Both the position numbers and the translations under genes were made by a program. The notes under the pieces are model-generated. The model did not search any database. It was not told where the DNA came from and worked only from the letters and a program-made list of their open reading frames with translations. From Thermoproteota archaeon (lineage in GTDB: Archaea > Asgardarchaeota > Jordiarchaeia > Jordiarchaeales > Freyrarchaeaceae), in the NCBI GenBank assembly GCA_029258835.1, contig JAPDJY010000088.1:1-33072 (forward strand): 33,072 bases of DNA. Direction: 5' to 3'. This document shows, in pieces, positions 3,860 through 22,709 of this stretch. Positions within the stretch are counted from its first letter, which is position 1. Each line of letters starts with the position of its first letter.

Positions 3860-3912
3860 GCCTACCGAGACGCTCTTAAAAAAAACCGAGAATTGGAGCT
3901 TTACTCTTGATT

Positions 3913-3927
3913 GAAAAAGTTTAAATT
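3913..3927 (+). promoter_or_regulatory. Putative BRE/TATA promoter for the rpl32e-cbf5 run
   Basis: GAAAAAG followed by TTTAAATT in an AT-rich intergenic region. Confidence 0.4.
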
Positions 3928-4051
3928 ACATGTTTATTTGAATGATGCTTAAAGGATTCTTCGTTAAAAAAAATCGTAACATTTTTTAACCGCCCTTCTT
4001 ACTGGGTAAGAAACCTGAAATGGACTCAAGAATTCATAGGATGGGGACGCT

Positions 4052-4711: not shown

Positions 4712-5157
4712 ACCTATCGGTTCAGAGGAGGATCGCCGCGGAGATACTTAAAGTCGGCGAGAGCAGGGTTTGGTTTGACCCAGAACGCATAGAAGACATT
4801 TCAACGGCGGTTACACGTGAAGATGTGCGTAGCCTGATAAAGCAGGGAGCAATAAAGGCGAAGCCTAAGGTCGGAGTGAGCAGAGCTCGGGCAAGAAGGC
4901 TGCACGAGAAGAAGCGTAGAGGGCAACGCAGAGGGCCAGGTAGCAGGAAGGGTGCTGCTACAGCCAGGATGCCAAGAAAGGAAAAGTGGATGATGAAAAT
5001 TAGAGCAATAAGAAAGTTTCTTAAGCGCCTCAGGGCACGACGGATAATCACCCAGAGTACATACAGGAAACTTTACAGGATGGCGAAGGGAGGCGCTTTT
5101 GGAAGCGTTGCGTACCTAAAGAGCTACATAAGGGAGAGGAAGCTTGCGAGACGGTGA
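4708..5157 (+). CDS. rpl19e: 50S ribosomal protein L19e
   Basis: QRRIAAEILKVGESRVWFDP, GPGSRKG and YRKLYRMAKGG motifs. Confidence 0.97.
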   Translation: MNLSVQRRIAAEILKVGESRVWFDPERIEDISTAVTREDVRSLIKQGAIKAKPKVGVSRARARRLHEKKRRGQRRGPGSRKGAATARMPRKEKWMMKIRAIRKFLKRLRARRIITQSTYRKLYRMAKGGAFGSVAYLKSYIRERKLARR

Positions 5158-5179
5158 AAACTGAGAGGGTGTCGTGAAA

Positions 5180-5779
5180 ATGGCGAGAGGCGCTCGGTAC
5201 AGGGTTCCCTTTAGACGGAGACGGGAGGGAAAAACGAACTACAGGCTTAGGAGGAAGCTCATTCTCTCAAAACTTCCGAGAGTCGTGGTTCGTGGAAGCT
5301 TAAACAACATTACCGTACAGTTGATTGAGCCGTCATTCGGAGGGGATAAAGTACTCTTTTCTGCCCATTCAAGGGAGCTGGTGAAAAAGTACGGGTGGAA
5401 GGGTCATTGTGGGAACCTTCCGGCAGCGTACTTAACGGGACTTCTACTTGCCTTAAAAGCTAAAGGGAAGGTTAAACGTGCAGTGTTAGACATAGGGTTA
5501 CATACCCCGGTGAGGGGGAGTAGGGTCTTCGCCGCGTTGAAAGGGGTACTTGACGGAGGACTAGACGTTCCACACGGTGAAGAGATACTTCCTTCCGAGG
5601 AGCGCATATCAGGAGGTCACATAGCGAAATACGCACGCTACCTCTTAGAGCTAGATCCTACAATCTACGCGAGGCAATTCTCAGCGCAGATAAAAAGAGG
5701 AGTAAGACCTGAAGATATGCCTAAGCATTTTAATGAGGTGAAAAAGGCAATTCTTGAAGATCTGGGAGGTAAACGTTGA
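5180..5779 (+). CDS. rpl18: 50S ribosomal protein L18 (uL18)
   Basis: [19 protein letters not shown] and LDIGL motifs. Confidence 0.97.
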
Positions 5780-6405
5780 TGGCGTTAGATGAGCTTGAAG
5801 AGTGGAAGCCAAAGACGGAGCTAGGAAGGCTTGTTAAGGAAGGTTACATCACAAGTATAGATGAGATTTTCGCTCAGGGACTTAGAATAATGGAGCCGCA
5901 AATAATCGATCTTCTCCTACCAGACTTAGAAGATGAGGTTGTTGGAATAAATCTTGTCCAGAAACAGACAGATGCTGGCGAAAGAACACGGTTTAAAGCC
6001 CTCGTAGCCGTCGGAAACAAGAAAGGATATATTGGACTTGGAAGCGCTAAGGCGGCGGAAATAGGACCAGCCATCAGGAAGGCGGTGGTGAATGCTAAAA
6101 TGGCTGTGACGCCTATCAGGTTGGCTTGTGGGAGCTGGGAGTGCGGCTGCGGTGCACCGCACACGGTCCCATTTAAAGTTTTAGGGAAAGCGGGAAGTGT
6201 GCGGGTAACACTGATACCCGCACCTCGAGGACTTGGCTTAGTCGCGTCGGATGTTGCTAAGATAATTTTAAGGTTGGCCGGCGTGAAAGATGTATGGTCC
6301 TTCTCGAAGGGACATACTAAAACTACTTTAAATCTTGCGTATGCGACGTTTAACGCTCTCAAACAGACAATGAAAACTTTAATTCCATCCGACTGGGGGC
6401 GGTGA
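5779..6405 (+). CDS. rps5: 30S ribosomal protein S5 (uS5)
   Basis: WKPKTELG, QKQTDAGERTRF, CGSWEC and PAPRGLGL motifs. Confidence 0.97.
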   Translation: MALDELEEWKPKTELGRLVKEGYITSIDEIFAQGLRIMEPQIIDLLLPDLEDEVVGINLVQKQTDAGERTRFKALVAVGNKKGYIGLGSAKAAEIGPAIRKAVVNAKMAVTPIRLACGSWECGCGAPHTVPFKVLGKAGSVRVTLIPAPRGLGLVASDVAKIILRLAGVKDVWSFSKGHTKTTLNLAYATFNALKQTMKTLIPSDWGR

Positions 6406-6409
6406 AGCG

Positions 6410-6892
6410 TTGAGCAGTAACAACAGGATCCTTGCCGTGGTAAGAATAAGAGGAGACGTAGGTGTTAGAAGGGAAATACGTGACACCTTAAAGATGTTAA
6501 GGCTGCACAGGGTTCATCATGCAGTGCTGGTGCCGGATGTGCCAAGTTATAGAGGAATGCTTCAGAAGGCAAAGGACTACATCACTTGGGGTGAGATAGA
6601 CTCTGAAACGCTAAGCATCCTTCTTGAAAGAAGGGGCAGGCTTGAAGGAGGTAAGAGGCTAACCAACGAGTTCCTTAAAGAAAATACAAGGTTTAACTCG
6701 GTGAGGGAGCTCGCCGATAAAATCCTTAAAGGTGAGGCGAAAATAAGCGATGTCCCCAAACTTAAGCCGGTGTTTAGACTACACCCTCCAAAAGGCGGCT
6801 ATAAAAGAGGGACAAAGAGGCCTTACAACGACGGAGGCGAACTCGGTTATCGCGGAGCAGCAATAAACGAGTTAATAAGAAGGATGGCATAA
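6410..6892 (+). CDS. rpl30: 50S ribosomal protein L30 (uL30, archaeal long form)
   Basis: VVRIRG, KDYITWGE, FRLHPPKGG and GELGYRG motifs. Confidence 0.96.
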   Translation: MSSNNRILAVVRIRGDVGVRREIRDTLKMLRLHRVHHAVLVPDVPSYRGMLQKAKDYITWGEIDSETLSILLERRGRLEGGKRLTNEFLKENTRFNSVRELADKILKGEAKISDVPKLKPVFRLHPPKGGYKRGTKRPYNDGGELGYRGAAINELIRRMA

Positions 6893-6993
6893 CAGGGTAA
6901 GACTCGGCTTTAATCTTGTTGAACCGTTAGAAACAAAAATTATAAATTTAGTTTATGTTCCTTTGAGCCTTAAAAGCAGGATGGTGCGGGCAA

Positions 6994-7416
6994 TTGATTA
7001 GAAGGAAAAGAAAAGTGCGTAAAATGCGTGGTAGTAGAACGCATGGGTATGGCAGGGTTGGGCAGCACCGTGGAGGAGGACAACGTGGAGGAAAAGGAGG
7101 AGCCGGAAAACATAAACACTTATGGATCTGGGTTTTAAAATATGACCGAGAATACTTTGGAAAGCACGGTTTTAAAAGGCACGGTGTGACAAGGGACGTT
7201 GCAACGCTAAATGTAGGGGGGCTTGACGAGAACGTAAGCCTCCTTAAATCGGGAGAGGAGAAGGGTGTACCGATTATAGATTTGACCAGCTTGGGATATG
7301 TGAAGGTTTTAGGATCAGGCAAGGTTACAAGGCCACTAATAGTAAAAGCAACCGAATTCACCGAGTTGGCTATTAGAAAAATTGAGGAGGCAGGTGGAAA
7401 AGCAATAAAAGTTTAA
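6994..7416 (+). CDS. rpl15: 50S ribosomal protein L15 (uL15)
   Basis: [22 protein letters not shown] and KIEEAGG motifs. Confidence 0.97.
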
Positions 7417-7511
7417 AGACCGCAAAAATAGGGTGATTTAACGGGAAGAAGGCCGATGCTCAGGTTGGAAATTGCTTAGGTGGGCAATTTCACAATTCTT
7501 GGGGGCTTTCT

Positions 7512-9167
7512 ATGGCCGGTACCTTCCTAAACATCTTCAGACCGTTCATTCGCTTCATGCCGGAAGTTAAAGCCCCGGATCGTAGGGTTAGCTTCAGAGA
7601 GAAGCTCGTTTGGACCGGTGTCGTTTTGATCCTCTACCTTATAATGGCGAACATCCCACTCTACGGAATACCTAGAGGGCAAGGGTTTGACTACCTGTAT
7701 TTCCTTAGGGTTATTCTGGCGTCTTCTAGAGGAACCTTAATGGAGTTGGGTATAGGACCCATAGTTACCGCGGGACTTGTCATGCAGTTGCTTGCTGGAT
7801 CAAAACTTATCGACGTAGACTTGTCGAACCCTGAAGATAGGTCGCTGTTCACCGGAGCACAGAAGGTTCTCGCTGTGCTGATGACCATGGTGGAGGCCGG
7901 CGTCTACATATTCGCTAAGGCATATGGCGACCTAACCATCTACCAAGCAGCTTTAGTGTTCCTGCAGTTAACCACGGCAGGGATCGTCTTGATACTTATG
8001 GATGAAATGCTTCAGAAAGGCTGGGGACTAGGGAGTGGGGTCAGCCTTTTTATAGCTGCTAACGTAGCAGGACAAATACTCTGGCTTTCCCTAAACCCTA
8101 ATACGAGCCCATACGACTACCTTGGCGTGGGGGCCTTAGTGGCACTAGTACAAGTTTTAACCTTTCCTTACTGGCCAGCAGCCTCCATGTTCCTTCAAGT
8201 TTTATATTCCTACCCACCTGACCAAAGACTTAGTGTTGAGTGTTTAACGTCGGCGACGCAGGCCGCATCATACATGCTCTACTACATGGCATTTTACCCT
8301 TATACGGGGGTCTACTACGTTTTTTTCAGGTCTCATAATCAACCCAGCATGATGGGGGTTATAGGTACAATCATCGTTTTTCTTGTAGTAGTTTACGTAG
8401 AGTCTGTTAGGGTTGAAATCCCTCTCCAGTACGCACGTTTTAGAGGGTTCCGAGGGAGATACCCGATAAAGTTTCTTTACACATCTAATATACCGGTTAT
8501 CCTCGCACAAGCAGTGATCGCTAACATCTTATTGGTTTCACAGGTTTTATGGTCGAATGTTGGGTATGTCCCCTTCTCGCAGCTTATCCCGCTCTTAGGA
8601 GCAATCTGGCCGGACATCGACGTTACCCAGCTCCAACCACTAGCGAGCTTAGGGTGGAACTATAACTCCTTGGTTAACATAATAGGACAGTTTATTCCCT
8701 CAACACCGAACATGAGCCAGCTTACTCCGGTAGGCGGAATCGCCTACTACTTCTCAACTCCCTACGGCTTAGATAACGTCTTTAAGGATCCGGGGCGGGC
8801 ACTCATATACCTCATCATATTTTCAACTTTGTGTGCGGCTCTTTCATATATTTGGATAGACGTGTCGGGAATGGCTCCAAGAGATGTGGCTAACCAGCTT
8901 ATCATGGCTGGAATGCAGGTTCCAGGATTCAGGAGGTCGCCTAAAATAGTTGAGAGGCTTCTCGAAAGGTATATTCCTCCCGTTACGATCCTTGGCGGCT
9001 TCGCCGTAGGGTTACTGGCTGCGTTTGCTGATTTTCTTGGTGCATTAGGAACGGGGACGGGGGTTCTGCTAACCGTAGGAATAATATATAACTATTATGA
9101 GTTAATTGCAAGGGAACAGCTTGCCTCAATAAGCCCTGCAATACGCGGCTTACTCGGGCTAGAGTAG
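7512..9167 (+). CDS. secY: Preprotein translocase SecY/Sec61alpha with expanded loops
   Basis: GTLMELGIGPIVTAG, KGWGLGSGVSLFI, YPIKFLYTSNIP and GTGTGVLL motifs. Confidence 0.97.
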   Translation: MAGTFLNIFRPFIRFMPEVKAPDRRVSFREKLVWTGVVLILYLIMANIPLYGIPRGQGFDYLYFLRVILASSRGTLMELGIGPIVTAGLVMQLLAGSKLIDVDLSNPEDRSLFTGAQKVLAVLMTMVEAGVYIFAKAYGDLTIYQAALVFLQLTTAGIVLILMDEMLQKGWGLGSGVSLFIAANVAGQILWLSLNPNTSPYDYLGVGALVALVQVLTFPYWPAASMFLQVLYSYPPDQRLSVECLTSATQAASYMLYYMAFYPYTGVYYVFFRSHNQPSMMGVIGTIIVFLVVVYVESVRVEIPLQYARFRGFRGRYPIKFLYTSNIPVILAQAVIANILLVSQVLWSNVGYVPFSQLIPLLGAIWPDIDVTQLQPLASLGWNYNSLVNIIGQFIPSTPNMSQLTPVGGIAYYFSTPYGLDNVFKDPGRALIYLIIFSTLCAALSYIWIDVSGMAPRDVANQLIMAGMQVPGFRRSPKIVERLLERYIPPVTILGGFAVGLLAAFADFLGALGTGTGVLLTVGIIYNYYELIAREQLASISPAIRGLLGLE

Positions 9168-9178
9168 GAGGGTTAAAC

Positions 9179-9778
9179 TTGAGCGAGGAAGGATTTGTAA
9201 TAGTTATCACCGGAATACCAGGAGTGGGGAAAACCACGGTTATTGATGCGGCGATGGAAGCGGCAAAGAGAGAAAACATGAACGTCACTTTAATGAATTA
9301 TGGGACGGTCATGTTTGAAATAGCTAAGGCTGAGGGACTAGTTGAAAACAGAGACCAAATGAGGAGGCTGCCATCACACGTGCAGAGGAGAATCCAAAGG
9401 CTTGCGGCACGTAGGATATCTGAGAATGCTAAGGGGCACGTAGTGCTGGTTGACACTCACATGTTAATTCGTACACCGGAGGGGTTCCTCCCCGGAATCC
9501 CAGCATGGGTCGCCGAAGAGTTGAAGCCCAACGTATTAGTGCTTGTCGAGGCGGAACCAGAAGAAATAGCCCGTAGAAGGAAGAAGGACGAAACAAGGGA
9601 AAGAGATGTACAGTCCATCGAGGAAATACAGACGCACCAAGAAATGTGCAGGTCTGCTGCAGCGGCATGCGCAGCCTTAACCGGGGCCACGATCGTGGTT
9701 ATCCCTAATCATGACGGACGCGCCCACGAGGCGGCTGAACAAGTGTTCAAACTATTCAGGACGTTAAAGGAAAGCTAA
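9179..9778 (+). CDS. adk: Archaeal adenylate kinase
   Basis: GIPGVGKTT P-loop, NYGTVM and DTH motifs; follows secY. Confidence 0.95.
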   Translation: MSEEGFVIVITGIPGVGKTTVIDAAMEAAKRENMNVTLMNYGTVMFEIAKAEGLVENRDQMRRLPSHVQRRIQRLAARRISENAKGHVVLVDTHMLIRTPEGFLPGIPAWVAEELKPNVLVLVEAEPEEIARRRKKDETRERDVQSIEEIQTHQEMCRSAAAACAALTGATIVVIPNHDGRAHEAAEQVFKLFRTLKES

Positions 9779-9803
9779 GGTAGGCGGAAAGGAGGTTCTG
9801 GAC

Positions 9804-10520
9804 GTGTTTTGGGATCCAGCAGCTCCGCCAGCGTCTACTCTAATTGTCTTGGCAGTATCGATTTTAGTGACGTTAACGTCAAGCGTGGTGAACCGTGTGC
9901 TTCTGCCAATACCGAAAATTAGAAGGTACGCTAAGGAGATAAGGAAATGGAGAGAGATGATGCAGAGGGCAAAGGAGACGGGAGACGAAAAACTGATGCT
10001 GAAGGCTAAAAGGCGGCAAAAGCTTATTGAGAAGATGCAAAGGGAGCAAGCAACACTTCAGTTTAGACCCATGCTCGTCTACCTCATACCATTTCTGGTA
10101 TTGTTCTACTATTTGAACAGCTTTTACAGTGCACCGTTTGGACCAACCGTTTCACCAACAATCGTTGCAGTACTCCCAGTCAACCTATTTGACGTACCCG
10201 GGTTTTCTCCGGGAACATTCGGTGGATTCGTCAGCCCTCTCCTCACAGATATTTCAACGGTTTACCCTCTATTCGCTACTTTATGGCCTAGAATATACCT
10301 CATGCAAGTACTACCCGGACTTACCGCAGTCCAACAATACCTGAACGTCCTAAAAATACTGACAAAATCAAGTGTAAACCTTCCGATTCCCCCTGTTCTT
10401 GACGGGTGGGCTCCTATTCCCGGATTTGGATTATGGTTCATATGGTGGTATTTCATTTCAAGCATAGCTTTCGGGGGACTCTTTCAGCGTCTTTTCGGAG
10501 TTTACATTCAACAATCTTGA
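9804..10520 (+). CDS. EMC3/TMCO1 (DUF106, Oxa1 superfamily) membrane protein
   Basis: TM1, coiled coil, FRPM-TM2 and C-terminal WFIWWYFISS; conserved position between adk and L34e. Confidence 0.88.
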   Translation: MFWDPAAPPASTLIVLAVSILVTLTSSVVNRVLLPIPKIRRYAKEIRKWREMMQRAKETGDEKLMLKAKRRQKLIEKMQREQATLQFRPMLVYLIPFLVLFYYLNSFYSAPFGPTVSPTIVAVLPVNLFDVPGFSPGTFGGFVSPLLTDISTVYPLFATLWPRIYLMQVLPGLTAVQQYLNVLKILTKSSVNLPIPPVLDGWAPIPGFGLWFIWWYFISSIAFGGLFQRLFGVYIQQS

Positions 10521-10532
10521 GGTGAAAGTGGT

Positions 10533-10799
10533 ATGCCAGCTCCTAGACTAAGGTCTAGATCTTTAAAAAGGAAGAAAGTCAGGACTCCCGGGGGAAGACT
10601 TGTAACTCATTATTGGAGAAGGACGGTGAGGAAGTATCGGTGCGCGGTGTGTGGGGGAGTGCTCCATGGATGCCCCACCAGCAAGGAAGACGAGAAACTA
10701 GCGAAGACCAAGAAGAGGCCGGAGAGACCGTACGGAGGATACCTTTGCCACCGCTGCCTCAGGGCCATGATAAAGGCTAAAGTTCGAGAGGGAGTTTGA
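10533..10799 (+). CDS. rpl34e: 50S ribosomal protein L34e
   Basis: RTPGGR, CAVCG and RPERPYGGYLCHRC motifs. Confidence 0.96.
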   Translation: MPAPRLRSRSLKRKKVRTPGGRLVTHYWRRTVRKYRCAVCGGVLHGCPTSKEDEKLAKTKKRPERPYGGYLCHRCLRAMIKAKVREGV

Positions 10800-10802
10800 G
10801 CC

Positions 10803-11348
10803 GTGGTCGTCGTAGCCATTAGCGGGCTGCACGGAACAGGAAAGACGACGCAGGCACGCTACATAGCGGAGCGCTTTAAGCTGAGGCACTTCTCAGCTGG
10901 AATGATAATGAGGAGAATGGCCGAAGAGAGGGGAATAGGCTTAGACGAGTTCTCAAGGATCGTTGAGGAGCAGCCTGAAATCGACAAGCTAATCGATGCC
11001 GCGAGCATCACCGAAGCTGAAAAGGGGAACGTGGTTTTGGATGCACGTTTGGCCGCCTGGATGGCTGGGGATAAAGCGGACATTAAGATCCTTTTAACGG
11101 CGCCCCTTGAAGTCAGAGCTAAAAGGATTGCTGTGAGAGATGGGAAAAGCTTTGAACAAGCTTTAAAAGAGACTATCGTAAGGGAAGAGAGTGAGAAAAG
11201 AAGGTACAAGGAACTTTACGGGGTAGATGTTGATGACTGTAGCATTTTCGATCTCGTTATAAACACGGCTTTGTGGGATGAGGAAACCATAAGGAAGGTG
11301 TTAGAATTACTGGTTGAAGCTTATTTGGCGTCTTCCGAAGGGAAGTGA
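10803..11348 (+). CDS. cmk: Cytidylate kinase (archaeal type)
   Basis: SGLHGTGKTT P-loop, DARLAAW and DLVINT motifs; synteny. Confidence 0.93.
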   Translation: MVVVAISGLHGTGKTTQARYIAERFKLRHFSAGMIMRRMAEERGIGLDEFSRIVEEQPEIDKLIDAASITEAEKGNVVLDARLAAWMAGDKADIKILLTAPLEVRAKRIAVRDGKSFEQALKETIVREESEKRRYKELYGVDVDDCSIFDLVINTALWDEETIRKVLELLVEAYLASSEGK

Positions 11349-11382
11349 AGGCTTTAATAAGACTAGAAAGTGAAGGCTTGGA

Positions 11383-11670
11383 ATGGAGGTGGATACGGTG
11401 GCATTGAAGCCCGGAAGTATTTGTGTGAAAACCGCTGGAAGAGAGGCTGGAAGGAAGTGCGTTGTTGTGGACGTGTTAGACAAAAACTTTGTTTTAGTGA
11501 CGGGGCCCCCCAGCTTAACAGGAGTTAAACGTCGAAGAGCGAACATAAAACATCTGGAAGCGACAGGGTATTACATAGACATTCCTCGTGGAGCAGATGA
11601 TGAATTAGTTCTCAAGAAGCTGGAGGAGGCGAACTTAGCCGAGAAAGTAAAGGAGAAGATTAAGCTTTAA
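11383..11670 (+). CDS. rpl14e: 50S ribosomal protein L14e
   Basis: [15 protein letters not shown] and VTGP...[13 protein letters not shown] motifs. Confidence 0.96.
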
Positions 11671-11705
11671 ACTGCTTTCCTCTCTTTCTAATGGGAGATG
11701 GGTGT

Positions 11706-12746
11706 ATGGAGAAGTCTTCATTAAACACGAAGAGGAGGATGCTCGTTAAAAGTGAGGATGAGACGTCAAGGGAGTACGGGAAGTACCCCGATGAGAGGAG
11801 CGTTGAGGAACTTTTAGAGGGATCCTTTGTTAACATCGACAAACCGGCTGGGCCTACAAGCCACGAGGTCTCTTCTTGGGTGAGACGCATCCTTAACTGT
11901 AAGAAGACCGGGCATGCAGGCACACTAGAGCCCTTACTCACGTAAGGGCGGTGAAACCCTAAGGTTACCGGGGTTTTACCCGTAGCTATAGGATACGCCA
12001 CAAAGCTTATTCAAGCATTGCACCTTGCAAGTAAGGAATACGTGTGTGTAATGAGGATGCACGGGGACGTTGGCTTTGAACAGGTTAAAATGGTTTGCAA
12101 CGAGTTTACTGGCCCGGTCTATCAGAGACCTCCAGTTCGATCATCAGTCAAGAGACGGCTTAGGATTAGGAGAATACATAGCATAGAAGCTCTCGAAATG
12201 GACGGCCGAAACGTTTTGCTGAAGATACGCTGCGAGTCAGGAACTTACATTAGGAAGCTGTGCCATGACATAGGGGAAGTTTTGGGGTGCGGAGCACATA
12301 TGCGTGAGCTTAGAAGAATCGGGAGTGGACCATTCACGGAGGAAAATATTGTGACGTTGCATGATTTAAAGGATGCATATGTCTTCTGGATGGAAGAGGG
12401 GGATTTAACTATTAAGAAATTTTTATTGCCAGCCGAAATAGCCGTTCAACACCTACCTAAAATATTCGTTCGTGACTCGGCTGTTGACGCCATATGTCAT
12501 GGCGCTGACCTAGCAGTTCCTGGCGTGGTTAAATTGGAGGAGGGCATCGAGCCGGGGGGGATGGTGGCCATTCTTACCCTTAAAGGAGAGCTCGTCGCAT
12601 TGGGATCTGCTTTAATGTCGACGGAGCAAGTTATTAGAGAAAAGAAGGGGTTGGCCGTTAAGACCAAGAGAGTAATCATGGAGAAGGGGACGTACCCGCC
12701 TCTCTGGAAGAAAAAAGAGGATGCAAAGTCGGATTCTTCGCCTTAA
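11706..12746 (+). CDS. cbf5: H/ACA pseudouridine synthase Cbf5, two exons (11706-11928, 11956-12746); 337 aa after splicing
   Basis: [11 protein letters not shown] and GHAGTL^DPKVTGVLP restored by removing 27 nt; ESGTYIRKL and PUA domain downstream. Confidence 0.95.
11929..11955 (+). other. 27-nt BHB-type intron in the cbf5 catalytic Asp codon
   Basis: Central helix CACT/GGTG, bulges AG^A and AA^A, inner stem GCCCTTAC/GTAAGGGC. Splicing gives CTA GAC CCT (L-D-P). The intron contains an in-frame TAA. Confidence 0.93.
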
Positions 12747-12810
12747 AAGTGGATTTTCTCCTACGGGCATCTGCTCTTTACCTAACTTTTAAACCTGACC
12801 CCTCCGGGGC

Positions 12811-12823
12811 GAAAAGTATAAAA
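12811..12823 (+). promoter_or_regulatory. Putative BRE/TATA promoter for rpl44e-rps27e-aIF2alpha
   Basis: GAAAAG-TATAAAA about 75 nt upstream of the rpl44e start. Confidence 0.5.
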
Positions 12824-12895
12824 TTGGTTTCATTCTCTCCTTACTCAAGCTTGAACGAGATCGAGGTTCTTTAGAGGAAAAGTGGAGGGTTAACG

Positions 12896-13200
12896 GTGAA
12901 ATATCCTAAAATAAGGCGAACCTACTGTCCTAGGTGTAAGAGGCACACCGAGCATTCAGTGAGTGTTTACAAGAAAGGTAAGGATAGGGCTTTAGCGGAG
13001 GGCGCTAGAAGGTACGCGAGAAAGAAACGTGGCTACGGCAGCCAGCCCAATCTTCTCTACGCTGCGTAGAGGGGGGCAAACCGATCCAGAGAGTGTTTGC
13101 AAAAACTACGAAGAAAGTCAGTTTTAAGCTCAAATGTAAGGAGTGCGGCCATATTATTCATACTAAGGGTATCCGCCTTAGGAAGGTTGAAACTGTCTAA
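12896..13200 (+). CDS. rpl44e: 50S ribosomal protein L44e (eL42), two exons (12896-13050, 13080-13200); 91 aa; not in the ORF track
   Basis: [18 protein letters not shown]...GYGSQP^[13 protein letters not shown]...CKECG; GGAGG upstream of GTG; precedes S27e as expected. Confidence 0.95.
13051..13079 (+). other. 29-nt BHB-type intron in rpl44e
   Basis: Central helix GCCC/GGGC, bulges AA^T and AA^A, inner stem CTCTACG/CGTAGAG. Splicing gives CCC AAA CCG (P-K-P). The unspliced frame stops at TAG inside the intron. Confidence 0.9.
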
Positions 13201-13214
13201 AGGAGGGTGCTTGG

Positions 13215-13421
13215 TTGCGGAAGCAGCGTGAGATAATTCCACAGCCTAGAAGCGTGTTCCTGAAGGTTCAATGCCCAGACTGTGGTACGGAAACCATAAT
13301 CTTCGACAGGGCCAGCACTGTCGTTAAGTGCCACGTGTGTGGAGCGATGTTAGCTGAGCCAGGAGGAGGAAAGGCTCGTCTCCTAGTTAAAAAGAAGAAC
13401 ATCATCCAGGTTCTGAGTTGA
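13215..13421 (+). CDS. rps27e: 30S ribosomal protein S27e
   Basis: PRSVFLKVQCPDCG...CHVCG...PGGGKA. Confidence 0.96.
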   Translation: MRKQREIIPQPRSVFLKVQCPDCGTETIIFDRASTVVKCHVCGAMLAEPGGGKARLLVKKKNIIQVLS

Positions 13422-13466
13422 AGTTTTGAGAAGGAAAGTAGGAAAAGTAAGAGAGTGTGGGTGAAA

Positions 13467-14261
13467 ATGGTTAGGTTGCGGAAAGGATTTCCGAGCGAGG
13501 GGGACCTTGTGATAGCCACCGTTACGAGAGTTGCTAAGCATGGAGCCTATGTTTCCTTAGACGAGTACGAGGGGAAGGAGGGGCTAATCCACATTTCAGA
13601 GATTTCTCAAAGCTGGGTTCGGAACATAAGAAACTTTGTTAGAGAAGGGCAGAAGGTTGTTGCTAAGGTCCTTAGAACCGATCCTAGGAAAGGGTTTATA
13701 GATCTTTCACTTCGAAGGGTGACGGAATATCAGAGGAAGCAGAAAATACAGGAGTGGAAGAGGGCGCAGAAGGCTGATAACCTTCTTGAGCTGGCTGCAG
13801 GAAAGCTTAAGGCAACCATTGATGAAGTCTACGAGAAGGTAGGATGGCCTCTTGAAGACAAATATGGGGAGATATATGCTGGACTGGAGGAGGCTTCAGA
13901 GAGAGGGGAGCAAGCTCTTCTCGACGCAGGCGTTGACGAGAAATGGGCCGCTGTTGTAGCCGAGCTAGCCCGAGCATACGTTGAAATTCCAAGGGTTAGG
14001 ATAGGGGGGTTCCTCGAACTAACTTGCTGGAAGCCTAACGGAATAGACGCCATTAAGAAGATGTTAATCTCGGCCGAAAAGGCCGCAGGGAACGGTGACA
14101 TATCCGTTGAAATATACACGGTGGGGGCTCCCAGATATAAAGTCGAGGTAACGGCTAAGGATTATAAGCAAGCTGAAGCCGCGTTAAAGAAGGTGGTGGA
14201 TACTGCATTAGCGATAATTAAAAGCGAGCGCGGGCAAGGATCCTTCACACGTGAAAAGTAA
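13467..14261 (+). CDS. eif2a: Translation initiation factor 2 alpha subunit (aIF2alpha)
   Basis: S1 domain (GAYVSLDEY, IHISEIS, IDLSLRRV) and GAPRY motif. The start may be up to 4 codons earlier. Confidence 0.95.
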   Translation: MVRLRKGFPSEGDLVIATVTRVAKHGAYVSLDEYEGKEGLIHISEISQSWVRNIRNFVREGQKVVAKVLRTDPRKGFIDLSLRRVTEYQRKQKIQEWKRAQKADNLLELAAGKLKATIDEVYEKVGWPLEDKYGEIYAGLEEASERGEQALLDAGVDEKWAAVVAELARAYVEIPRVRIGGFLELTCWKPNGIDAIKKMLISAEKAAGNGDISVEIYTVGAPRYKVEVTAKDYKQAEAALKKVVDTALAIIKSERGQGSFTREK

Positions 14262-14279
14262 GGTAAGTTTAGACCTTCT

Positions 14280-14459
14280 TTACGTTGACTTTAACTCCAT
14301 TAGTTCTTTCTTCCGTTTCCTTCTCCACTCACCTAAGCGGTCTTCTATGGAGAATTTCGGCGGGTGGGGGATCCTAACCTCTCCTCCACAGTAGGGACAG
14401 GCATCCTGCCTTAGAGTGTACCGGCCACATGAAACACACTTTCTAAGTAGGAACCCCAT
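14280..14459 (-). CDS. nop10: H/ACA RNP protein Nop10 (59 aa; below the ORF-track cutoff)
   Basis: MGFLLRKCVSCGRYTLRQDACPYCGG...PHPPKFSIED read on the minus strand. Confidence 0.93.
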   Translation of the reverse strand: MGFLLRKCVSCGRYTLRQDACPYCGGEVRIPHPPKFSIEDRLGEWRRKRKKELMELKST

Positions 14460-14474
14460 TAGGGAGCACCCTTA

Positions 14475-17000
14475 TCAGCTTACTGTAACTTCCATTTCCC
14501 TCTCTAAATCAGGGATGGATGCCACTATCTTTAGGGGTACTTTATCGCCACTGTTAAGGGTTAACCCGCTTGCTTTGAAGGATAACTCCACGCTTTCACC
14601 CGGCTGAATAGTCACACCGGAGAAGTCGCATGCCGTACCATTAAGGTAGATTCCCGTAACGTTGAACGCGACTTTTCCATTGTTAACTATCCTTGCTACG
14701 CCGTTCCCTGACGCGTCGATGCTTACACTTTCAACGCTCATATTTGCGTCCAGAATTGAGTAATCTATTTCGAAGATCTTAACCAAGTGGTTGCTCGATA
14801 TGAAAACCGGCTTGAAGTGTTTTAAAACGCTGAAGCCGTGCTGCCAATTGGGGTACCATCCCGGAGGGTTTCCAACCTCATTGTACCCTATCACGAGGGG
14901 GTAACCGTTATCCTGCATGTAGCTGTAAAGACGGTACTCCAACGCGTTTTGAGACGGGTTTTCGGGGTTAGGGTCGTGATAGTAGAGAAGCTTGTAGAGG
15001 GTCATATTGAAGAAGCTTGGAAGGTATTTTACTCCGGTTGGCGTGGGAGCATAATACTCGTACTCCCATGGCGTGTAAAAAACGTTAAAGGAGATCTTCG
15101 CCATCCAGATCCATTTCCCCTCGTCTCCATGCAGGTTTGCGTCGTTATGCCCAAAGTACACGAGGACATGGGTGGCGTTGAACTGACGCAGGATCTCCAA
15201 GCTTTCCGTCTCATTGGTAGACGTTAACGCCCTTCCAACAAGCGCTATTTGAGTTGTGTTAAATGTTGCATTGTCAACCACGGTTGTCTTGTTGCCCCTG
15301 ACGGTAATCCAGTAGCCATAATCCCACCAAGATACTATAATAGCGTTTGGAGGCAGCTCGTTCTGCATGAATGCAAATGCCTCCTCCCAGTCAAGGTAAA
15401 AGTTCCCATAGCTGTCCCTTGGAGCCATCTGAGGCGAGCCGGAAAAGACCGTTGCCGTTACACCGTGATGGAAAGCAAAGAAAAGGAGAATTCCAGTTAT
15501 CGCAAAAACGGCAAAGGCAGATTCTTTACCCAAGATCTTCCTTACAATAGCTCTCCTTCTTTTAATGGCTATCTTCTCCTCGCCTAGGAGTACGCGTGAA
15601 AGCGGGTCATATATCATGGCGAGGGCGAAGCCCGACATGAGACACGCCACGGGGGCAAAAAGTAGTACGAGCCGAATCATGGACCCTGCGAAGTAGACAG
15701 TCGTCACGCCCAAGATTAACAGCATGAGATCTTCATCCCTTCTCCTTTGAAACGCAAAGTACATTCCAACAGGGAAAAGTATTACTGTAACGTGAAGGTC
15801 GTAGAAGAACATGCCCCACGCTGTGGAAGCATGCTCAGCGACGCTTGCTATGATTACCTCTTCCTCTCTGTAGAATGGATTGGCTACCGACAGATAGCGT
15901 CCGCTAATACTTAAAAACGAACTTAACTTGTAAGATAAAGCAAGGGAGAGAATAGGATTTGAATATAAAAGCAGCATTACACACGCTAGGAGGCTTACAG
16001 TGACCGCTGCTAGCGTGAGTGCGGCATTCCTCCTAGTTTTTATGAGATTGTGAATCTGCGGGTACTTAGCTATTTTTTCAGGGATGCTGCGGATTGCAGG
16101 TTTAACCCGCGGATACACTTCATAGAGCACAAGTATCAGTAACCCAATTATTGCGGGAAGTGCGCTTCCTGAAACTAGGTAGCCGGCATCGTATTCCGGG
16201 ACACGTGTGGCCACGAAGAGGCCCAGTGTTACGGTTATGCTATATCCTATTAGCAGGTTGCTCGAGTACCTCTTAAGTAGGATTAATAGGATGACTGCTA
16301 ACGGGAGAACGTACAGCATGTATATTGCAGCCCCCCAGCTGGCTATGAACCCTCCCAAGCTTAACCCAGCCATAACCGCTGAAAAAACCGATTTCCTCTT
16401 CAAGGATCTTATGAAGAAGAAAGTTGTCAATATGAAGAAGAATAGGCCTACACACTCGTTGTCAAAAAAGCCTGCGATGGTCCGTTCAATGAAGCCTGGG
16501 GTGAAGGAAAGCAGGAAGGAGGCTATTAGGCCTGCTTTCTCGTCTAAGACTTCACGTCCGAGGAAGAACATTGCGACGCAGGAGGCGGCGCCCATGACGG
16601 CTGGGAGGACGTAACAAACCATGTACACGTCGAGGTTAACGCCTAATGCTTTTAGTAAGAAGTATAATGTAGCGGCTGTGAAGGGGACTCCTGGAAGGTA
16701 GCTGCGTGATATATCTTGCCCATACGGGTACCACCTCATCCTGTCATACCATCCAAACCAGGCACCATACCCGTAAGTAGTTATAAACACGGTGTTATAG
16801 TACTGGATCCAGGGGTCATACGCTGCTATGTAGGGGGGATACAGGAAGAACGGGAAAAGCCTGATTAAGAAGGCAAGAAGTGCTATTAGTGCGACGCTTG
16901 CAGCTAGGACGAAGAGCTTTTTATCAACTTTGACCTTAACTACCCGGAGGATGTCGTCGAAAAGGCTTGCCAGAAAACTCCTGTTTGCCAACGGACTCAT
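14475..17000 (-). CDS. aglB: Oligosaccharyltransferase AglB/STT3 with a C-terminal Ig-like domain
   Basis: YDPW, GFFDNE, SVAEH, WWDYG and DEGK (DK) motifs; many TM helices. Confidence 0.96.
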   Translation of the reverse strand: MSPLANRSFLASLFDDILRVVKVKVDKKLFVLAASVALIALLAFLIRLFPFFLYPPYIAAYDPWIQYYNTVFITTYGYGAWFGWYDRMRWYPYGQDISRSYLPGVPFTAATLYFLLKALGVNLDVYMVCYVLPAVMGAASCVAMFFLGREVLDEKAGLIASFLLSFTPGFIERTIAGFFDNECVGLFFFILTTFFFIRSLKRKSVFSAVMAGLSLGGFIASWGAAIYMLYVLPLAVILLILLKRYSSNLLIGYSITVTLGLFVATRVPEYDAGYLVSGSALPAIIGLLILVLYEVYPRVKPAIRSIPEKIAKYPQIHNLIKTRRNAALTLAAVTVSLLACVMLLLYSNPILSLALSYKLSSFLSISGRYLSVANPFYREEEVIIASVAEHASTAWGMFFYDLHVTVILFPVGMYFAFQRRRDEDLMLLILGVTTVYFAGSMIRLVLLFAPVACLMSGFALAMIYDPLSRVLLGEEKIAIKRRRAIVRKILGKESAFAVFAITGILLFFAFHHGVTATVFSGSPQMAPRDSYGNFYLDWEEAFAFMQNELPPNAIIVSWWDYGYWITVRGNKTTVVDNATFNTTQIALVGRALTSTNETESLEILRQFNATHVLVYFGHNDANLHGDEGKWIWMAKISFNVFYTPWEYEYYAPTPTGVKYLPSFFNMTLYKLLYYHDPNPENPSQNALEYRLYSYMQDNGYPLVIGYNEVGNPPGWYPNWQHGFSVLKHFKPVFISSNHLVKIFEIDYSILDANMSVESVSIDASGNGVARIVNNGKVAFNVTGIYLNGTACDFSGVTIQPGESVELSFKASGLTLNSGDKVPLKIVASIPDLEREMEVTVS

Positions 17001-17120
17001 CCCGTTTCTCCCTTTATTTAATTTTCCTCTTTACATCACCCCTCTTTTAAAGATATCTTTCCCTTACGGATCCTCCATGATAAGAAGTTTTTTGGTGGAA
17101 TGAGAGAGCTGTGGATGGAT

Positions 17121-17134
17121 AAGCTTTATAAAAA
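17121..17134 (+). promoter_or_regulatory. Putative TATA box for rps3ae
   Basis: AAGCTTTATAAAAA in the divergent aglB/rps3ae spacer. Confidence 0.45.
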
Positions 17135-17205
17135 GGGTGCGTGTAGTCCCTTTGTCAAAGATGATGTTAGTCAAGATGTTACAGTTGGATCCGGGGCGGT
17201 CGCTG

Positions 17206-17826
17206 ATGAGCCGTAAAGAGCGTGTGAAGGATACATGGAGCACTAAAAAGTGGTTTACCGTCCTAGCCCCACCCTACTTTGGTAACGTTGAGATCGGGTT
17301 GACTCCGGCGAACAGCCCAGAGAAGATCCTTGGTAGAGTGATGGAGACTACACTGTACGACATTACAGGAGACTTCTCGTTGATCCACGTGAAACTTTAC
17401 TTTAAAATAATAAACGTTTCAGGGGATGTTGCGCAGACAGAGTTTCACGGCCACGAATTTGCACGGGACTTCCTCAGGAGCCTTATAAGGCGGGGAAGCA
17501 GTAAAGTGGAAGGTATCTTCGACGTTGTAACCAGGGATGGACGGGGGTTACGCGTCTACCCTGTAGCGTTCACTGTAAACAGGATCAAGACCAGCCAAGA
17601 AAAAGCCATTAGGAAGGTAATGAAGGAAATAGTGGAAAACAAGGCGAAGCAGCTTGATTATGGCGACTTCGCCCAAGAGATGGTGCTGGGCAAGGTGGGC
17701 TCTGAAATTTATAACTTAGCTAGGAAAATAGCGCCCTTAAGGAAATGTGATGTTTGGAAGTCGAAGCCTATTAAGCTTCGCACACGGGTGGTGGAGGTAG
17801 GTCAGGAGGCTGTCCAACCAGCTTAA
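17206..17826 (+). CDS. rps3ae: 30S ribosomal protein S3Ae (eS1)
   Basis: KDTWSTKKWFTVLAP, GRVMETTLYDITGDF and RSLIRRGSSK motifs. Start placed at MSRKER. Confidence 0.96.
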   Translation: MSRKERVKDTWSTKKWFTVLAPPYFGNVEIGLTPANSPEKILGRVMETTLYDITGDFSLIHVKLYFKIINVSGDVAQTEFHGHEFARDFLRSLIRRGSSKVEGIFDVVTRDGRGLRVYPVAFTVNRIKTSQEKAIRKVMKEIVENKAKQLDYGDFAQEMVLGKVGSEIYNLARKIAPLRKCDVWKSKPIKLRTRVVEVGQEAVQPA

Positions 17827-17848
17827 TGATGCTTGCGGGGTGTCTACA

Positions 17849-17989
17849 TTGAGCTTGGAGAAGAAGTGTGTTAAGTGTGGTTCCCCCCAAGTTGAAGTTT
17901 TACTTAGGCAGCCGTTAACTTCAGGGGTTGAGTACACTTACAAGTGTTTAGTATGCCACCACACATGGAAGGAAAAAAGGAAGCGGTAA
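17849..17989 (+). CDS. 46-aa zinc-ribbon protein, TFS/RpoM C-terminal-like; not in the ORF track
   Basis: MSLEKKCVKCGSPQVEVLLRQPLTSGVEYTYKCLVCHHTWKEKRKR*; GGGGTG SD-like motif 6 nt before TTG. Confidence 0.7.
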   Translation: MSLEKKCVKCGSPQVEVLLRQPLTSGVEYTYKCLVCHHTWKEKRKR

Positions 17990-18011
17990 AAGAAGCGACA
18001 CACGTCTACCC

Positions 18012-18284
18012 TTACTTTTTAACGTTTCTCCGGGTTAACTCCGCGGTTTTCTCTGTGAGAGAGGCGCTTGCAAGGATGTCGTCGATCGTTGATAAGAAGG
18101 TGTTAAGGCCCTTTTCACATTCGACCATTATGATCAGCTTCTCTCCGACGTTTTTCATGCTTAACTTTAACCCTTTAGGAAGAGGCTTATTGTCTGGGAG
18201 CAGCGTTTTAAACATTACCTCTGCCATGTGGGCATCCTCAAATAGTATCTCGATCACCGCTTTAGATCTGCTATCTTCCGCCAC
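18012..18284 (-). CDS. pcc1: KEOPS subunit Pcc1-like protein
   Basis: ~90 aa with LLPDN and FLSTIDDIL motifs; occupies the usual S15-DHH-pcc1 position next to S3Ae. Confidence 0.8.
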   Translation of the reverse strand: MAEDSRSKAVIEILFEDAHMAEVMFKTLLPDNKPLPKGLKLSMKNVGEKLIIMVECEKGLNTFLSTIDDILASASLTEKTAELTRRNVKK

Positions 18285-19692
18285 AGCCGCCCATCCCCAG
18301 TTCTTCGTCGAGTAACATGAGAAACTCTTCTTCCTTACCAACAGGTATGTATGCTCCAGCAGCTAACTCATGGCCTCCAGCCGCCGTCTCAAGCTTCATC
18401 CTCTCCATAACCCTCCTCACCAATTCTCCTAAATCTACATTTTCCCCTCCTTTCCCCAGCCGAATGGAAGCTTTAATGCAGTCTTCCTCGTTAGAGTAGG
18501 CTAATCCAACGATAACTTTGCTTTGATACTTCTTAGAGGATGCGAGTATGGACGCAACTGTTCCAACCATCCTTACGTCGATGCGGCCAACTCCACTGAA
18601 CCAGTACAGGTTCTTCCGCTTCTTCATCCCCTCTCCTTCAACCCAGTTGATGTAGTCTGCTAGCTTCACCCGGTACTCGTCAACGGCCTCCGCTGCCTCG
18701 GAAAGGGACCTCTTCCTTTCCCCCATACATATGGCTAATCCCAGCCCGGTCCTCCCGGTACGTCCACAGGCGTTAAGGAGCGACGCGTACTCTCTTGCAT
18801 CCCTCATGGGGGTTCCCTCTCTCTCCCTGCTTAAGACGTAAACAGTACCTATAATGCTCTGAGCTTCGTCAGCGCTCATGTTTCCCGGACCCAACATGTA
18901 CTTTACAAGCTCGGAGACCAGCCTAGCTTTCTCTTCACGTGAAAGCTCGGCTATTGTCCTCCAGCGATCACCCGCCTTCAATGGTATCTGCACTCTCTCC
19001 ACGAGAAACTTTAAGCATGCACCGTGGTTCCCGGATAAACCGGGTATGAATGGGTCTGTCGTGTATTCAAGAGCAACTGGTATGGGACGTGTCTCACGTC
19101 CAAAAACTATCAGGTCTTTAACCTCCTGCAGAATGCCGTGCTCCACTCCTTCCCTAGCTATTTCGGCATTTAAGCCTGTTAGACTACGTTGCTTTCCTTT
19201 GTCTTGCCTGTCCCCGAGGGCTCCGACGATGGCCAACGGGGACAGGTCCCTGTTTTTAACGTCAATCTCTCTTGCCACCAGGTATGCTGCTCCGGCGCCG
19301 CTGACGTCGACACCTCCATCTAAGCCGAAAAGGTGAGGGTTAAAGTGAATGAGCCTTCCACCGCCCTCTTCGGGGGGGTGATGATCGATTACTACGGTGT
19401 CTTCTTGCAGGGATTCCTCCAGAAGCTTTAACTGTCCACTACCCATGTCGGTGAACACGAACACTCTCTCCCTTCTCGGGATACGCTCTAGGCTCTTCCT
19501 GCTTAGCTGCTGGATTATCCGGACGTGGAACCTTGCATTAAGCCGTGTAAGGGAGGTTGAAATGATGCTTGCCGCTGCGATGCCGTCAGCGTCCAGGTGA
19601 GAAACTACCTGAAAAAGAGCATTTTCCCGTGCTTTTTCACGCAGGTAACTCGCCACGTCTCTAGCTGCCTTAACGAGTTGAGGTGGAGGCAC
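18271..19692 (-). CDS. DHH-family RecJ/GAN-like phosphoesterase
   Basis: HLDADG, TDMGS, IDHH, GALGD, LLNACGR and GGHELAAG (DHHA1) motifs. Confidence 0.93.
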   Translation of the reverse strand: MPPPQLVKAARDVASYLREKARENALFQVVSHLDADGIAAASIISTSLTRLNARFHVRIIQQLSRKSLERIPRRERVFVFTDMGSGQLKLLEESLQEDTVVIDHHPPEEGGGRLIHFNPHLFGLDGGVDVSGAGAAYLVAREIDVKNRDLSPLAIVGALGDRQDKGKQRSLTGLNAEIAREGVEHGILQEVKDLIVFGRETRPIPVALEYTTDPFIPGLSGNHGACLKFLVERVQIPLKAGDRWRTIAELSREEKARLVSELVKYMLGPGNMSADEAQSIIGTVYVLSREREGTPMRDAREYASLLNACGRTGRTGLGLAICMGERKRSLSEAAEAVDEYRVKLADYINWVEGEGMKKRKNLYWFSGVGRIDVRMVGTVASILASSKKYQSKVIVGLAYSNEEDCIKASIRLGKGGENVDLGELVRRVMERMKLETAAGGHELAAGAYIPVGKEEEFLMLLDEELGMGGCGGR

Positions 19693-19712
19693 TTTCCCTT
19701 CAAACCCGCCTT

Positions 19713-20171
19713 TTACTGCCGTATGAGTATGGCTGCCTTCTCAGGGTCATACTTCCAGTCTGGTGGTAGAACTCCCTTCCGCTTGTAGTACTTTACCAGC
19801 CTGTGGATCTTTGACTCTATAAGTTGAAGACCCCTTCTTGAGTGGAGGTCCTTCTTGTGCTCTTCAAGATGACGTCTAACCCTCACAGCCCGCCTCATGA
19901 GGTTTATGAGGTCCTCTGGAAGGGAAGGGGCGAGTCCGTGCTCCTTCAAGATCTGGGTGATCTTTTTGCCTACTATCGGCTTAACAAGGGGGACACCATA
20001 CTGGTCCCTTAGGATAACTCCAATCATGGATGGCGGGTGGCCGCTTTTGGCAAGCTCTACTACTTTGTCTACAACCCACTCCGGCGTCTTATCAAACCAT
20101 TCAGGCGGCCTTTTCACCGGGGGTCTCTTCGACGATGACTTCCCTCTCTTCCTGGCGTATATCCTCGCCAT
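19713..20171 (-). CDS. rps15: 30S ribosomal protein S15 (uS15/S13e)
   Basis: [26 protein letters not shown] and [14 protein letters not shown] motifs. Confidence 0.97.
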
Positions 20172-20229
20172 GGCTGAACCCTTCAGAAGTCTTAGACCGT
20201 GAAAGCTGGAGGAACTATGGTTCGAAGAT

Positions 20230-20805
20230 TTAAATAATTTTCGAGCTTCCAGTGAGCCATTCCGCAAGCTTTCTAAGAGCTCTTGCCCTATGGGAAAGGG
20301 CGTTCTTTTCCTCCACTTCAAGCTCTCCGAAGGTCCTCCCGTCGCCTTCGTAGGGTATGAATATAGGGTCGAACCCGAACCCTTTCCCGCCTTTAGCCTC
20401 GTGCGCGATCACTCCGAGGACTTCCCCTCTAAACGTTACGATTCGGCTCTGGTTTACGGCTGCGACTACGGATTCGAACTTTGCCCTGCGGTTTTCAACG
20501 CCATCCATCAACTTCAGGATGCCTTCATTACCTATTTTGCTAAAAACATAGGACGAATATGGCCCCGGAAAGCCATTAAGAGCCTCTATGAACAAGCCGG
20601 CGTCCTCGACGAGGACGACGCCGTCTAAGTGGACCTCACGCATAACATGTTCCAGGCTAAACCTAGCTATCTCCTCCAAGCTTTCCGACTGTACCTCAAC
20701 CCGTTTAACAGTTAACTGTTCGACCGTAATACCGTACTTGGAGAGAACCCTTTTTGCTTCCTTCAACTTGTGAGGGTTTCCGGTGGCGAAAAAAACCTTT
20801 CTCAC
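20230..20805 (-). CDS. rdgB: XTP/dITP diphosphatase (RdgB/HAM1)
   Basis: [27 protein letters not shown] and SHR motifs. GTG overlaps the bud32 stop. Confidence 0.95.
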
Positions 20806-21426
20806 CGTTCCGAGTACCTCCCTCGCCTCTCGATCTCCCACATTTTCTCTATTACAGCGTCTGCCCCGCTGAACGAGCTCCGGTAGCCTTGAAGTATGAT
20901 GCCGAAGGCCTCTTCAAAAACGTCATAGTGGGTGCTTTCCAGCGCCCTCTTCATCAGGTGAAGGTCTACACCGCGGTCCTCAACGCTTCGGGAGAAGTCG
21001 CCCAGTCCGAAGTCTATGAAGAAGATTTTTCCACGGCTGAGTATCATATTAAGTTGTCAGGTCCCCATGTATTACTCCCATCCTATGCAGCCTCCCTATC
21101 GACTTTCCCACCTCGTAAAGTCGTTTACGCAGCTCCTCACCCGGTAACCTGCCACTTTTAATAAGCTCTTTCAAGGTTCCACCTTCAACGTAGTCCATTA
21201 CGATGGTTGCGTTATCTACGTCTACCAGGTAAACAGTTGGCGCCGGTACTCCAGCCCTCTTGGCGGCGTGGAGCAGACGAGCCTCACGCACCGTCCTCTG
21301 CCGCCTTAAAAGAAGGTCCAACTCTGTAACCCTATAATTTTTGGTGACTCTCACCTTGACGAGAACCTTCCTGCCGAAGAGGTCTTCTAGGAAAAGGTGA
21401 GCCTCCGCGCCCTTCCTGAAAAGCAA
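20802..21426 (-). CDS. bud32: KEOPS kinase Bud32, frameshifted at ~21051 in this sequence
   Basis: KGAEA, VKVR and HGDLTT in one frame; NMIL, IDFGL, VDLHL and RGRY in another. The junction ACT T AAT lacks 2 nt of the expected Ser codon. Confidence 0.88.
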
Positions 21427-22472: not shown

Positions 22473-22476
22473 TCCG

Positions 22477-22665
22477 TTACGCCTCTTTCTCCTCTGAGCC
22501 ACCTTCCTTCTTTTTCTCTCTCACATAGTCTGTGTAGCCGCACTTGCCACACGTGTAACGGCGCCAGTGCTCAGCCATGAAAACGCCGGGGCCGCACCTA
22601 GGGCAAAACCTTTTAACACGGACAAGCTTCCCATCAACAATCTTATAATATTTGCTAACGCTCAC
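22477..22665 (-). CDS. rps27ae: 30S ribosomal protein S27ae (eS31)
   Basis: [13 protein letters not shown]...CGKCGYT; GGAGG before GTG. Confidence 0.95.
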
Positions 22666-22709
22666 CCGACCGCCTCCGCCACCTATTTTCAAGGTCGGCT
22701 AGCGTGTTA

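Follow-up and report, generated by a model that had tools for sequence, protein, structure and literature searches.

Ribosomal protein gene rpl44e of Jordarchaeales archaea is interrupted by a predicted BHB-type pre-mRNA intron

In the window (the whole 33,072-nt stretch of DNA analysed here), rpl44e is with high probability a single gene interrupted by a 29-nt splicing-endonuclease (BHB-type) intron, whose splicing is predicted from the sequence. The gene is divided between two reading frames. The first is a 57-aa ORF with a GTG start (12896-13069) that closes at a TAG within the insert and encodes a fragment without the second CxxC, and the other holds the remaining rpl44e up to a TAA at 13198-13200 (Table 1). 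Removal of positions 13051-13079 leaves a 273-nt reading frame for 91 aa, followed by a stop. The initial annotation had claimed that this removal yields a complete 91-aa eL42 with both CxxC pairs, and the product and an ungapped alignment agree with it. In the spliced product the four-Cys zinc ribbon is complete, with CPRC at aa 11-14 and CKEC at aa 70-73, and both pairs are retained in 12 of 12 alleles. The junction joins AA (13049-50) to A (13080) in a Lys codon, giving the protein ...GYGSQP-K-PIQR..., and the spliced eL42 aligned to solved archaeal eL42 chains without a gap over this point. Exon 1 matched positions 1-36 of the Pfam profile Ribosomal_L44 (PF00935; E 2.6e-12) and exon 2 matched positions 38-75 (E 1.5e-10), both above the cut-off of 25 bits. 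Because the profile is matched from 1 to 36 and then from 38 to 75, the two pieces are colinear halves of one domain; the junction Lys is profile position 37. The eL42 of an intron-less congener, described below, matched the solved chain 8hku with an E value of 1.9e-32.

Table 1. Positions of the rpl44e gene parts, the predicted intron structure and other interrupted genes in the window.
Feature	Position	Strand	Remarks
cbf5 insert	11929-11955, inside cbf5 11691-12746	+	27 nt, two in-frame stops
Shine-Dalgarno-like box GGAGG	12884-12888	+	7 nt 5' of GTG start; read from sequence
rpl44e exon 1	12896-13050	+	51 codons and AA of Lys-52 codon; carries CPRC
Central helix, 5' strand GCCC	13045-13048	+	last exon bases 5' of bulge; partner 13074-13077
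5' bulge A-A-U	13049-13051	+	predicted cut 13050/13051; unpaired in local MFE and RNAalifold folds
BHB-type intron (predicted)	13051-13079	+	29 nt; frame-0 reading NLLYAA, then TAG
Inner hairpin (h')	13052-13073	+	stem 9-10 bp, CUG loop
Central helix, 3' strand GGGC	13074-13077	+	within intron
3' bulge position A-A-A	13078-13080	+	predicted cut 13079/13080; no outer helix closing it
rpl44e exon 2	13080-13200	+	Lys-52 third base, 39 codons and TAA; carries CKEC
kae1/tsaD, split	21427-22502	-	Bud32-like kinase piece at 21049-21426
aIF2-gamma insert	26080-26109	-	30 nt, in P-loop Lys codon
EF-1alpha insert	28832-28874	-	43 nt, in P-loop Lys codon

The gene lies among L14e, cbf5, S27e, eIF2-alpha, Nop10 and AglB, within a larger ribosomal protein gene block, and in relatives a GGAGG/AGGGTG-like box likewise stands upstream of a TTG or ATG start. 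Among named genomes the nearest eL42 exon-1 sequences were those of Candidatus Jordarchaeales, Jordarchaeum, Jordarchaeia and Freyarchaeota metagenome-assembled genomes (MAGs); this similarity assigns the window to the Asgard class Jordarchaeia, which is the same as Freyarchaeia (PMC11291895). The genome to which the window belongs is a 2.72-Mb MAG, 94.7% complete. An intact rpl44e elsewhere, which the initial annotation had named, together with a lack of junction reads, as evidence against an intron, was not found in it: in a PF00935 search of the genome the above-chance matches were these two halves only. Further copies of the intron were also sought in the genome and none was found; nothing therefore points to a repeated or mobile element.

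The DNA runs in which the stretch occurs are metagenomes of hydrothermal vents and marine sediments. With contamination of the MAG estimated at 6%, an assembly or sequencing artefact might be suspected. However, the insert was seen ungapped in DNA assemblies X1 (record 3) and X11 (record 13), from two public runs of different studies, X1 perhaps being the window's source sample; a JGI contig (L046) has the identical sequence, and nine other species assemblies carry a homologous insert. We give an artefact practically no probability. One X1 contig showed a DNA joint 12996->13230 (side 24), which was discarded as cross-organism noise.

A comparison of eL42 with relatives, as the initial annotation had proposed, located an insert in the same Lys codon in 10 of 11 Jordarchaeales species genomes, the window's genome counted. 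With metagenome contigs included there were 12 distinct alleles, and their inserts were 29, 30, 33 or 34 nt long. No insert was present at this site in ~145 other archaeal eL42 loci, taken from other Asgard classes, Thermoproteota, Bathyarchaeia and Nitrososphaeria. All 12 alleles follow the pattern (G/A)CC(C/U)-AA-N ... GGG(C/U)-AA-N, in which the AA at the 5' bulge is invariant, as is the terminal AA of the insert, although the latter is non-coding. The eL42 of other Asgard families (L029-L033, L036-L042) has a loop ~6 aa longer at the intron site, GNKGKYSKKAITQ... An exonised intron was considered as its origin and rejected: since the loop is in frame, stop-free and conserved at the protein level, it is a real protein difference. 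We take it to resemble the euryarchaeal L44e loop.

The fold of the insert is also conserved. In the alignment of alleles, 93.3% of pair cells held standard pairs, vs 43-56% when the partners were slid, a control biased towards the structure, which had been drawn from the very sequences used for the count. Compensatory double changes occurred at four inner-helix pairs, and the covariation score was reached by 0 of 500 shuffles. Mean identity among alleles was 65% for the insert vs 42% at fourfold-degenerate third positions. Judged by these sequence comparisons, the insert is under selection as RNA.

Both exons of rpl44e are under strong purifying selection. Where dS was measurable, dN/dS was 0.03-0.08 for exon 1 and 0.04-0.07 for exon 2; synonymous sites were saturated in all comparisons of the window with a relative, where dN was 0.05-0.28, and exon 1 was 73-94% identical to that of relatives. 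These values bear on the idea that the locus is a decaying rpl44e pseudogene with a junk insertion, eL42 being dispensable or otherwise supplied. Such an origin would account for the broken frame and for the 57-aa product that is all gene callers record. It is nevertheless extremely unlikely, given dN/dS of 0.03-0.08 in both exons over synonymously saturated species, the retention of both CxxC pairs and the single copy of rpl44e in the genome; the same interruption, moreover, recurs in 10 species genomes (window included) and further metagenome contigs, and the insert is itself conserved.

The insert and its borders fold into a BHB-type structure. This structure was the local MFE fold of positions 13031-13094 (64 nt; -21.6 kcal/mol), and RNAalifold recovered the same core from the 12 alleles with no helices prescribed; in the MFE fold of an 81-nt stretch the central helix was absent. 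The central helix of 4 bp parts two unpaired 3-nt stretches on opposite strands. Exon bases ahead of the 5' site are paired with intron bases ahead of the 3' site, which is the bulge-helix-bulge arrangement of pre-tRNA. It was present both in the RNAalifold and in the local MFE fold, and 97.9% of its cells were paired over the 12 alleles, compared with 91.5% for the inner hairpin. Nine of the 12 alleles have a 5' bulge of exactly 3 nt; the window's allele can be read either with a 4-nt bulge or with a 3-nt bulge and an additional bulged U (13053 or 13054) in the inner stem. The strict hBHBh' form, which demands flanking helices of 2 bp or more at each bulge, was not found, as the adjacent outer helix is missing. 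Beyond a 2x2 loop RNAalifold placed at most two non-adjacent pairs in the outer region, one of which is a C-A mismatch in this allele. Since the outer exon-exon helix is missing beside the 3' site, the motif is of the relaxed form. Of the BHB intron proposed in the initial annotation, the BHB-type fold and the canonical cuts that give the junction stood, with the qualification that a real outer helix is lacking. Relaxed motifs have been associated with cbf5 introns and with hetero-oligomeric EndA (PMC2738675, PMC5829648).

In the ARMAN-2 EndA-RNA structure the 2'-OH of the second bulged nucleotide attacks, and cleavage falls between bulge bases 2 and 3 (PMC12397907). Applied to the insert, this rule predicts cuts at 13050/13051 and 13079/13080, which is the junction that homology requires and which results in the conserved QPKPIQ. 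The junction pattern, a 4-nt helix strand and AA/T followed by a 4-nt helix strand and AA/A in a Lys codon, was said in the initial annotation to be shared with two GTPase inserts, and it does recur in aIF2-gamma and EF-1alpha. CAA stands at both insert boundaries, so that four cut pairs give one product, and only the geometry rule distinguishes the exact cut sites. Direct repeats around the cut sites were CAA/CAA in the window, TAAG/TAAG in contig L026 and TAAAC/TAAAC in contig L049 (alignment of 12 rpl44e alleles, columns 18-21 and 52-55).

How often such a motif arises by chance depends on where it is looked for. A permissive BHB pattern scan returned 819 matches on one strand of the 33,072-nt window, and with the pattern this common a BHB motif by itself is no evidence. 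When the insert region was shuffled with its boundaries fixed, however, 4 of 200,000 sequences gave a 4-bp central helix and an inner helix of at least 9 bp. It is the coincidence of the motif with the homology-defined junction that constitutes evidence, and chance is an unlikely explanation of it. Rfam and ARAGORN gave no matches on the window.

The genome encodes both enzymes that splicing would need. An EndA catalytic subunit (C1) is of the crenarchaeal alpha type, with 190 aa and candidate Tyr, His and Lys residues; its best PDB match was the (alpha-beta)2 enzyme of Aeropyrum pernix (3p1z_B, E 4e-46), and it also matched the (alpha-beta)2 catalytic subunit of Pyrobaculum (2zyz_B). A second EndA paralogue (C6) lacks, by inspection, the His at the catalytic spot. 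From these two genes we infer a two-subunit EndA in a heterotetramer state. Non-canonical motifs are cut only by (alpha-beta)2 and epsilon2 enzymes (PMC5829648). RtcB is likewise encoded in the genome (profile score 607 bits). Introns occur in 92-95% of the tRNA genes of Freyarchaeia and Atabeyarchaeia (PMC11291895); of the 23 tRNA calls that ARAGORN made in this genome, 18 were intron-containing, in agreement with these intron-rich groups.

We propose the following course of events. In the pre-mRNA, GCCC of exon 1 (13045-48) would form the central helix with GGGC (13074-77), which lies close to the insert's 3' end, and the bases between them would form a hairpin of 9-10 bp. On either side of this 4-bp helix, on opposite strands, A-A-U (13049-51) and A-A-A (13078-80) would stay single-stranded. 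Here the two-subunit EndA would cut after the second unpaired base at both sites (13050/13051 and 13079/13080), and RtcB would join the exons, so that AA and A make the Lys codon and translation would give the 91-aa zinc-ribbon eL42. The excised 29-nt intron would probably be a circular product. From mRNA left unspliced, nothing but the 57-aa fragment could be translated.

Translational recoding would instead have the ribosome pass the insert by frameshift, by a hop like that of T4 gene 60, or by Pyl/Sec insertion or read-through at the stops. Relatives with 30- or 33-nt inserts do keep the frame, there is a hairpin after the break, and the insert is bordered by short direct repeats (YAA). However, the lengths of 29, 30, 33 and 34 nt cover all three phases, and a single rule of frameshifting cannot account for them. 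A frame-0 stop is present in 12 of 12 alleles (TAG, or TAG and TAA), and the frame-0 translation of the insert is unconserved. Because the YAA repeats do not lie in frame, hopping from one matching codon to another would cost the protein its conserved Lys, and neither the intron-less congener nor the solved homologues have extra residues at the site. Read-through or Pyl/Sec recoding across the allele group is, on these sequences, untenable, and we hold recoding of any kind to be very improbable.

A split gene, in which polypeptides of 57 aa and ~35 aa assemble on the ribosome, could make use of a GTG at 13093 (codon 57), from which a 35-aa ORF spans the greater part of exon 2. This GTG is missing from 11 of 11 other alleles, though; exon 2 has no in-frame start in 5 alleles and one only from codon 83 in 6, and the 35-aa ORF omits the invariant KP(I/V)Q segment. 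The probability of two separate polypeptides is accordingly negligible.

Other genes in the window are interrupted as well. The cbf5 insert folds with a CACU/GGUG helix, bulges AGA and AAA and an 8-bp inner stem, and the predicted cuts at 11928/29 and 11955/56 turn GAG...AAAC into G/AC, by which the catalytic Asp in GTLDPKVTG is rebuilt. The upstream cut divides this Asp codon after its first base. The crenarchaeal cbf5 intron has been assigned to the same codon position, and its splicing was experimentally confirmed in Crenarchaeota (PMC2738675). Because the cbf5 Asp codon is recreated, the geometry rule predicts correctly and non-trivially 1 kb from rpl44e. The cbf5 insert may be either an intron common to Asgard and TACK archaea or the result of recurrent insertion. 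In aIF2-gamma and EF-1alpha, each insert shows CGGC-AA/N ... GCCG-AA/N and an inner hairpin, and these paralogous GTPases are interrupted at the homologous codon, GHVDHG-K-T/S-T. The shared site suggests either an old intron or site-specific insertion. In kae1, the TsaD profile was matched at 3-66 and 137-264 by two separate ORFs and its middle was absent, so at least one further insert or frame change divides this gene.

The intron has probably been lost in one lineage. The curated complete Freyarchaeia-1 chromosome (G006, CP147778.1) reads ...CAGCCTAAGCCAATA... at this place, without the insert. In a tree of spliced coding sequences, which comprised 276 columns and in which several forks were weak, G006 grouped with a peat-type contig (L050; support 95/87), and the intron-bearing contig L049 was sister to the two (87/81), within the intron-bearing family-f2 clade. 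As the intron-less genome nests inside an intron-bearing clade, a precise loss in the soil Freyarchaeia-1 lineage is indicated. The distribution would be most parsimoniously explained by one gain in the Jordarchaeales ancestor and one precise loss in the Freyarchaeia-1 lineage. One gain with precise loss is the pattern that Yokobori et al. described for cbf5 in 2009 (PMC2738675). Microhomology at the cut sites could offer a route to intron deletion at the DNA level, as an alternative to reverse-transcribed spliced mRNA. Intron-bearing alleles together with a precisely intron-less congener form a clean natural pair for experiments on the gain and loss of mRNA introns.

RNA and protein records were also searched. 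Contigs from two metatranscriptome runs over 3001-23000 covered L14e, S27e and eIF2-alpha, and none lay over 12896-13200; the stretch made up small shares of these runs, and they yielded no RNA joint. Among the 120 best-scoring of 5.8 billion protein clusters, the spliced form of eL42 was not among the clusters listed, and the sole full-length eL42 of Jordarchaeia type in that list (P0007) belongs to an intron-less soil relative. An exact look-up for the spliced form returned the 57-aa stub only. This exon-1 product (P0001, 12896-13066) occurred on 7 contigs across NCBI, ENA and Logan. Its 90% cluster has as representatives 376-aa proteins annotated as OafA/YrhL acyltransferase, apparently a quirk of the clustering. 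The initial annotation had called the gene hidden, and for this organism the truncated 57-aa ORF is indeed the only recorded product. Since gene callers see the 57-aa stub, rpl44e seems truncated or missing in Jordarchaeia genomes, and an rpl44e overlooked in this way can bias completeness estimates based on marker genes, phylogenies built from ribosomal proteins and reports of gene loss.

Introns in crenarchaeal cbf5 pre-mRNA were reportedly studied by Watanabe in 2002 and Yoshinari in 2006. Like the rpl44e intron, the cbf5 intron of Crenarchaeota (Aeropyrum, Sulfolobales, Desulfurococcales) is short (tens of nt) and intra-coding. In both cases a BHB or relaxed BHB lies at the borders and the host has a hetero-oligomeric EndA (an assignment that we infer here), the gene is mis-annotated by callers, and the intron is confined to certain lineages, some of which have secondarily and precisely lost it. 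Unlike crenarchaeal cbf5, the host gene here encodes a ribosomal protein rather than a pseudouridine synthase, the organisms are Asgard Jordarchaeia, and splicing is predicted. Archaeal tRNA introns at non-canonical positions, which have relaxed motifs (HBh'/BHL) and are cut by (alpha-beta)2 or epsilon2 EndA, share with the rpl44e intron a 4-bp central helix and 3-nt bulges cut after the second base; they likewise lack one flanking helix, are 11-175 nt in size and are processed by the enzymes presumed to act on rpl44e. The rpl44e substrate differs in being an mRNA, with no tRNA body aiding recognition. With an mRNA as the substrate, excision would compete with translation and decide the reading frame.

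Two systems outside the archaea can also be compared. In eukaryotic HAC1/XBP1, as predicted for rpl44e, a short intron is removed from a coding sequence independently of the spliceosome by a stem-loop-recognising protein endonuclease, the ends are then joined by an RNA ligase, which is RtcB in metazoa or else Trl1, and splicing alters which protein results, as we propose for rpl44e. HAC1/XBP1 differs in that its endonuclease is IRE1, not EndA, and in being stress-regulated. In the translational bypassing of phage T4 gene 60, a single coding sequence likewise contains a short stretch that is left untranslated and that includes a stop and a hairpin. Unlike gene 60, rpl44e is without matching in-frame take-off and landing codons, its gap length varies in all phases, and the structure of its insert fits EndA geometry.

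In the literature searched, splicing of an archaeal protein-gene mRNA by the tRNA machinery was confirmed for cbf5 only, and Asgard tRNA introns were described but Asgard mRNA introns were not found. The rpl44e gene would thus provide a new host gene and a new phylum for the known BHB pre-mRNA introns, and splicing is very probably needed for its expression.

The intron might further serve as a gate, with no eL42 made until EndA and RtcB have processed the mRNA, and with retention and conservation of the insert reflecting a role beyond staying cleavable. We consider such a role unlikely. If it were true, the output of ribosomes in Jordarchaeia would be tied to the capacity for tRNA processing, and there would be an archaeal counterpart of HAC1/XBP1, acting on a group of core translation genes that in this window alone comprises cbf5, rpl44e, kae1, aIF2-gamma and EF-1alpha. 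Apart from any such gate, an essential single-copy ribosomal protein gene would depend on the predicted splicing, in a lineage that stands near the origin of eukaryotes and whose tRNA genes are exceptionally rich in introns.
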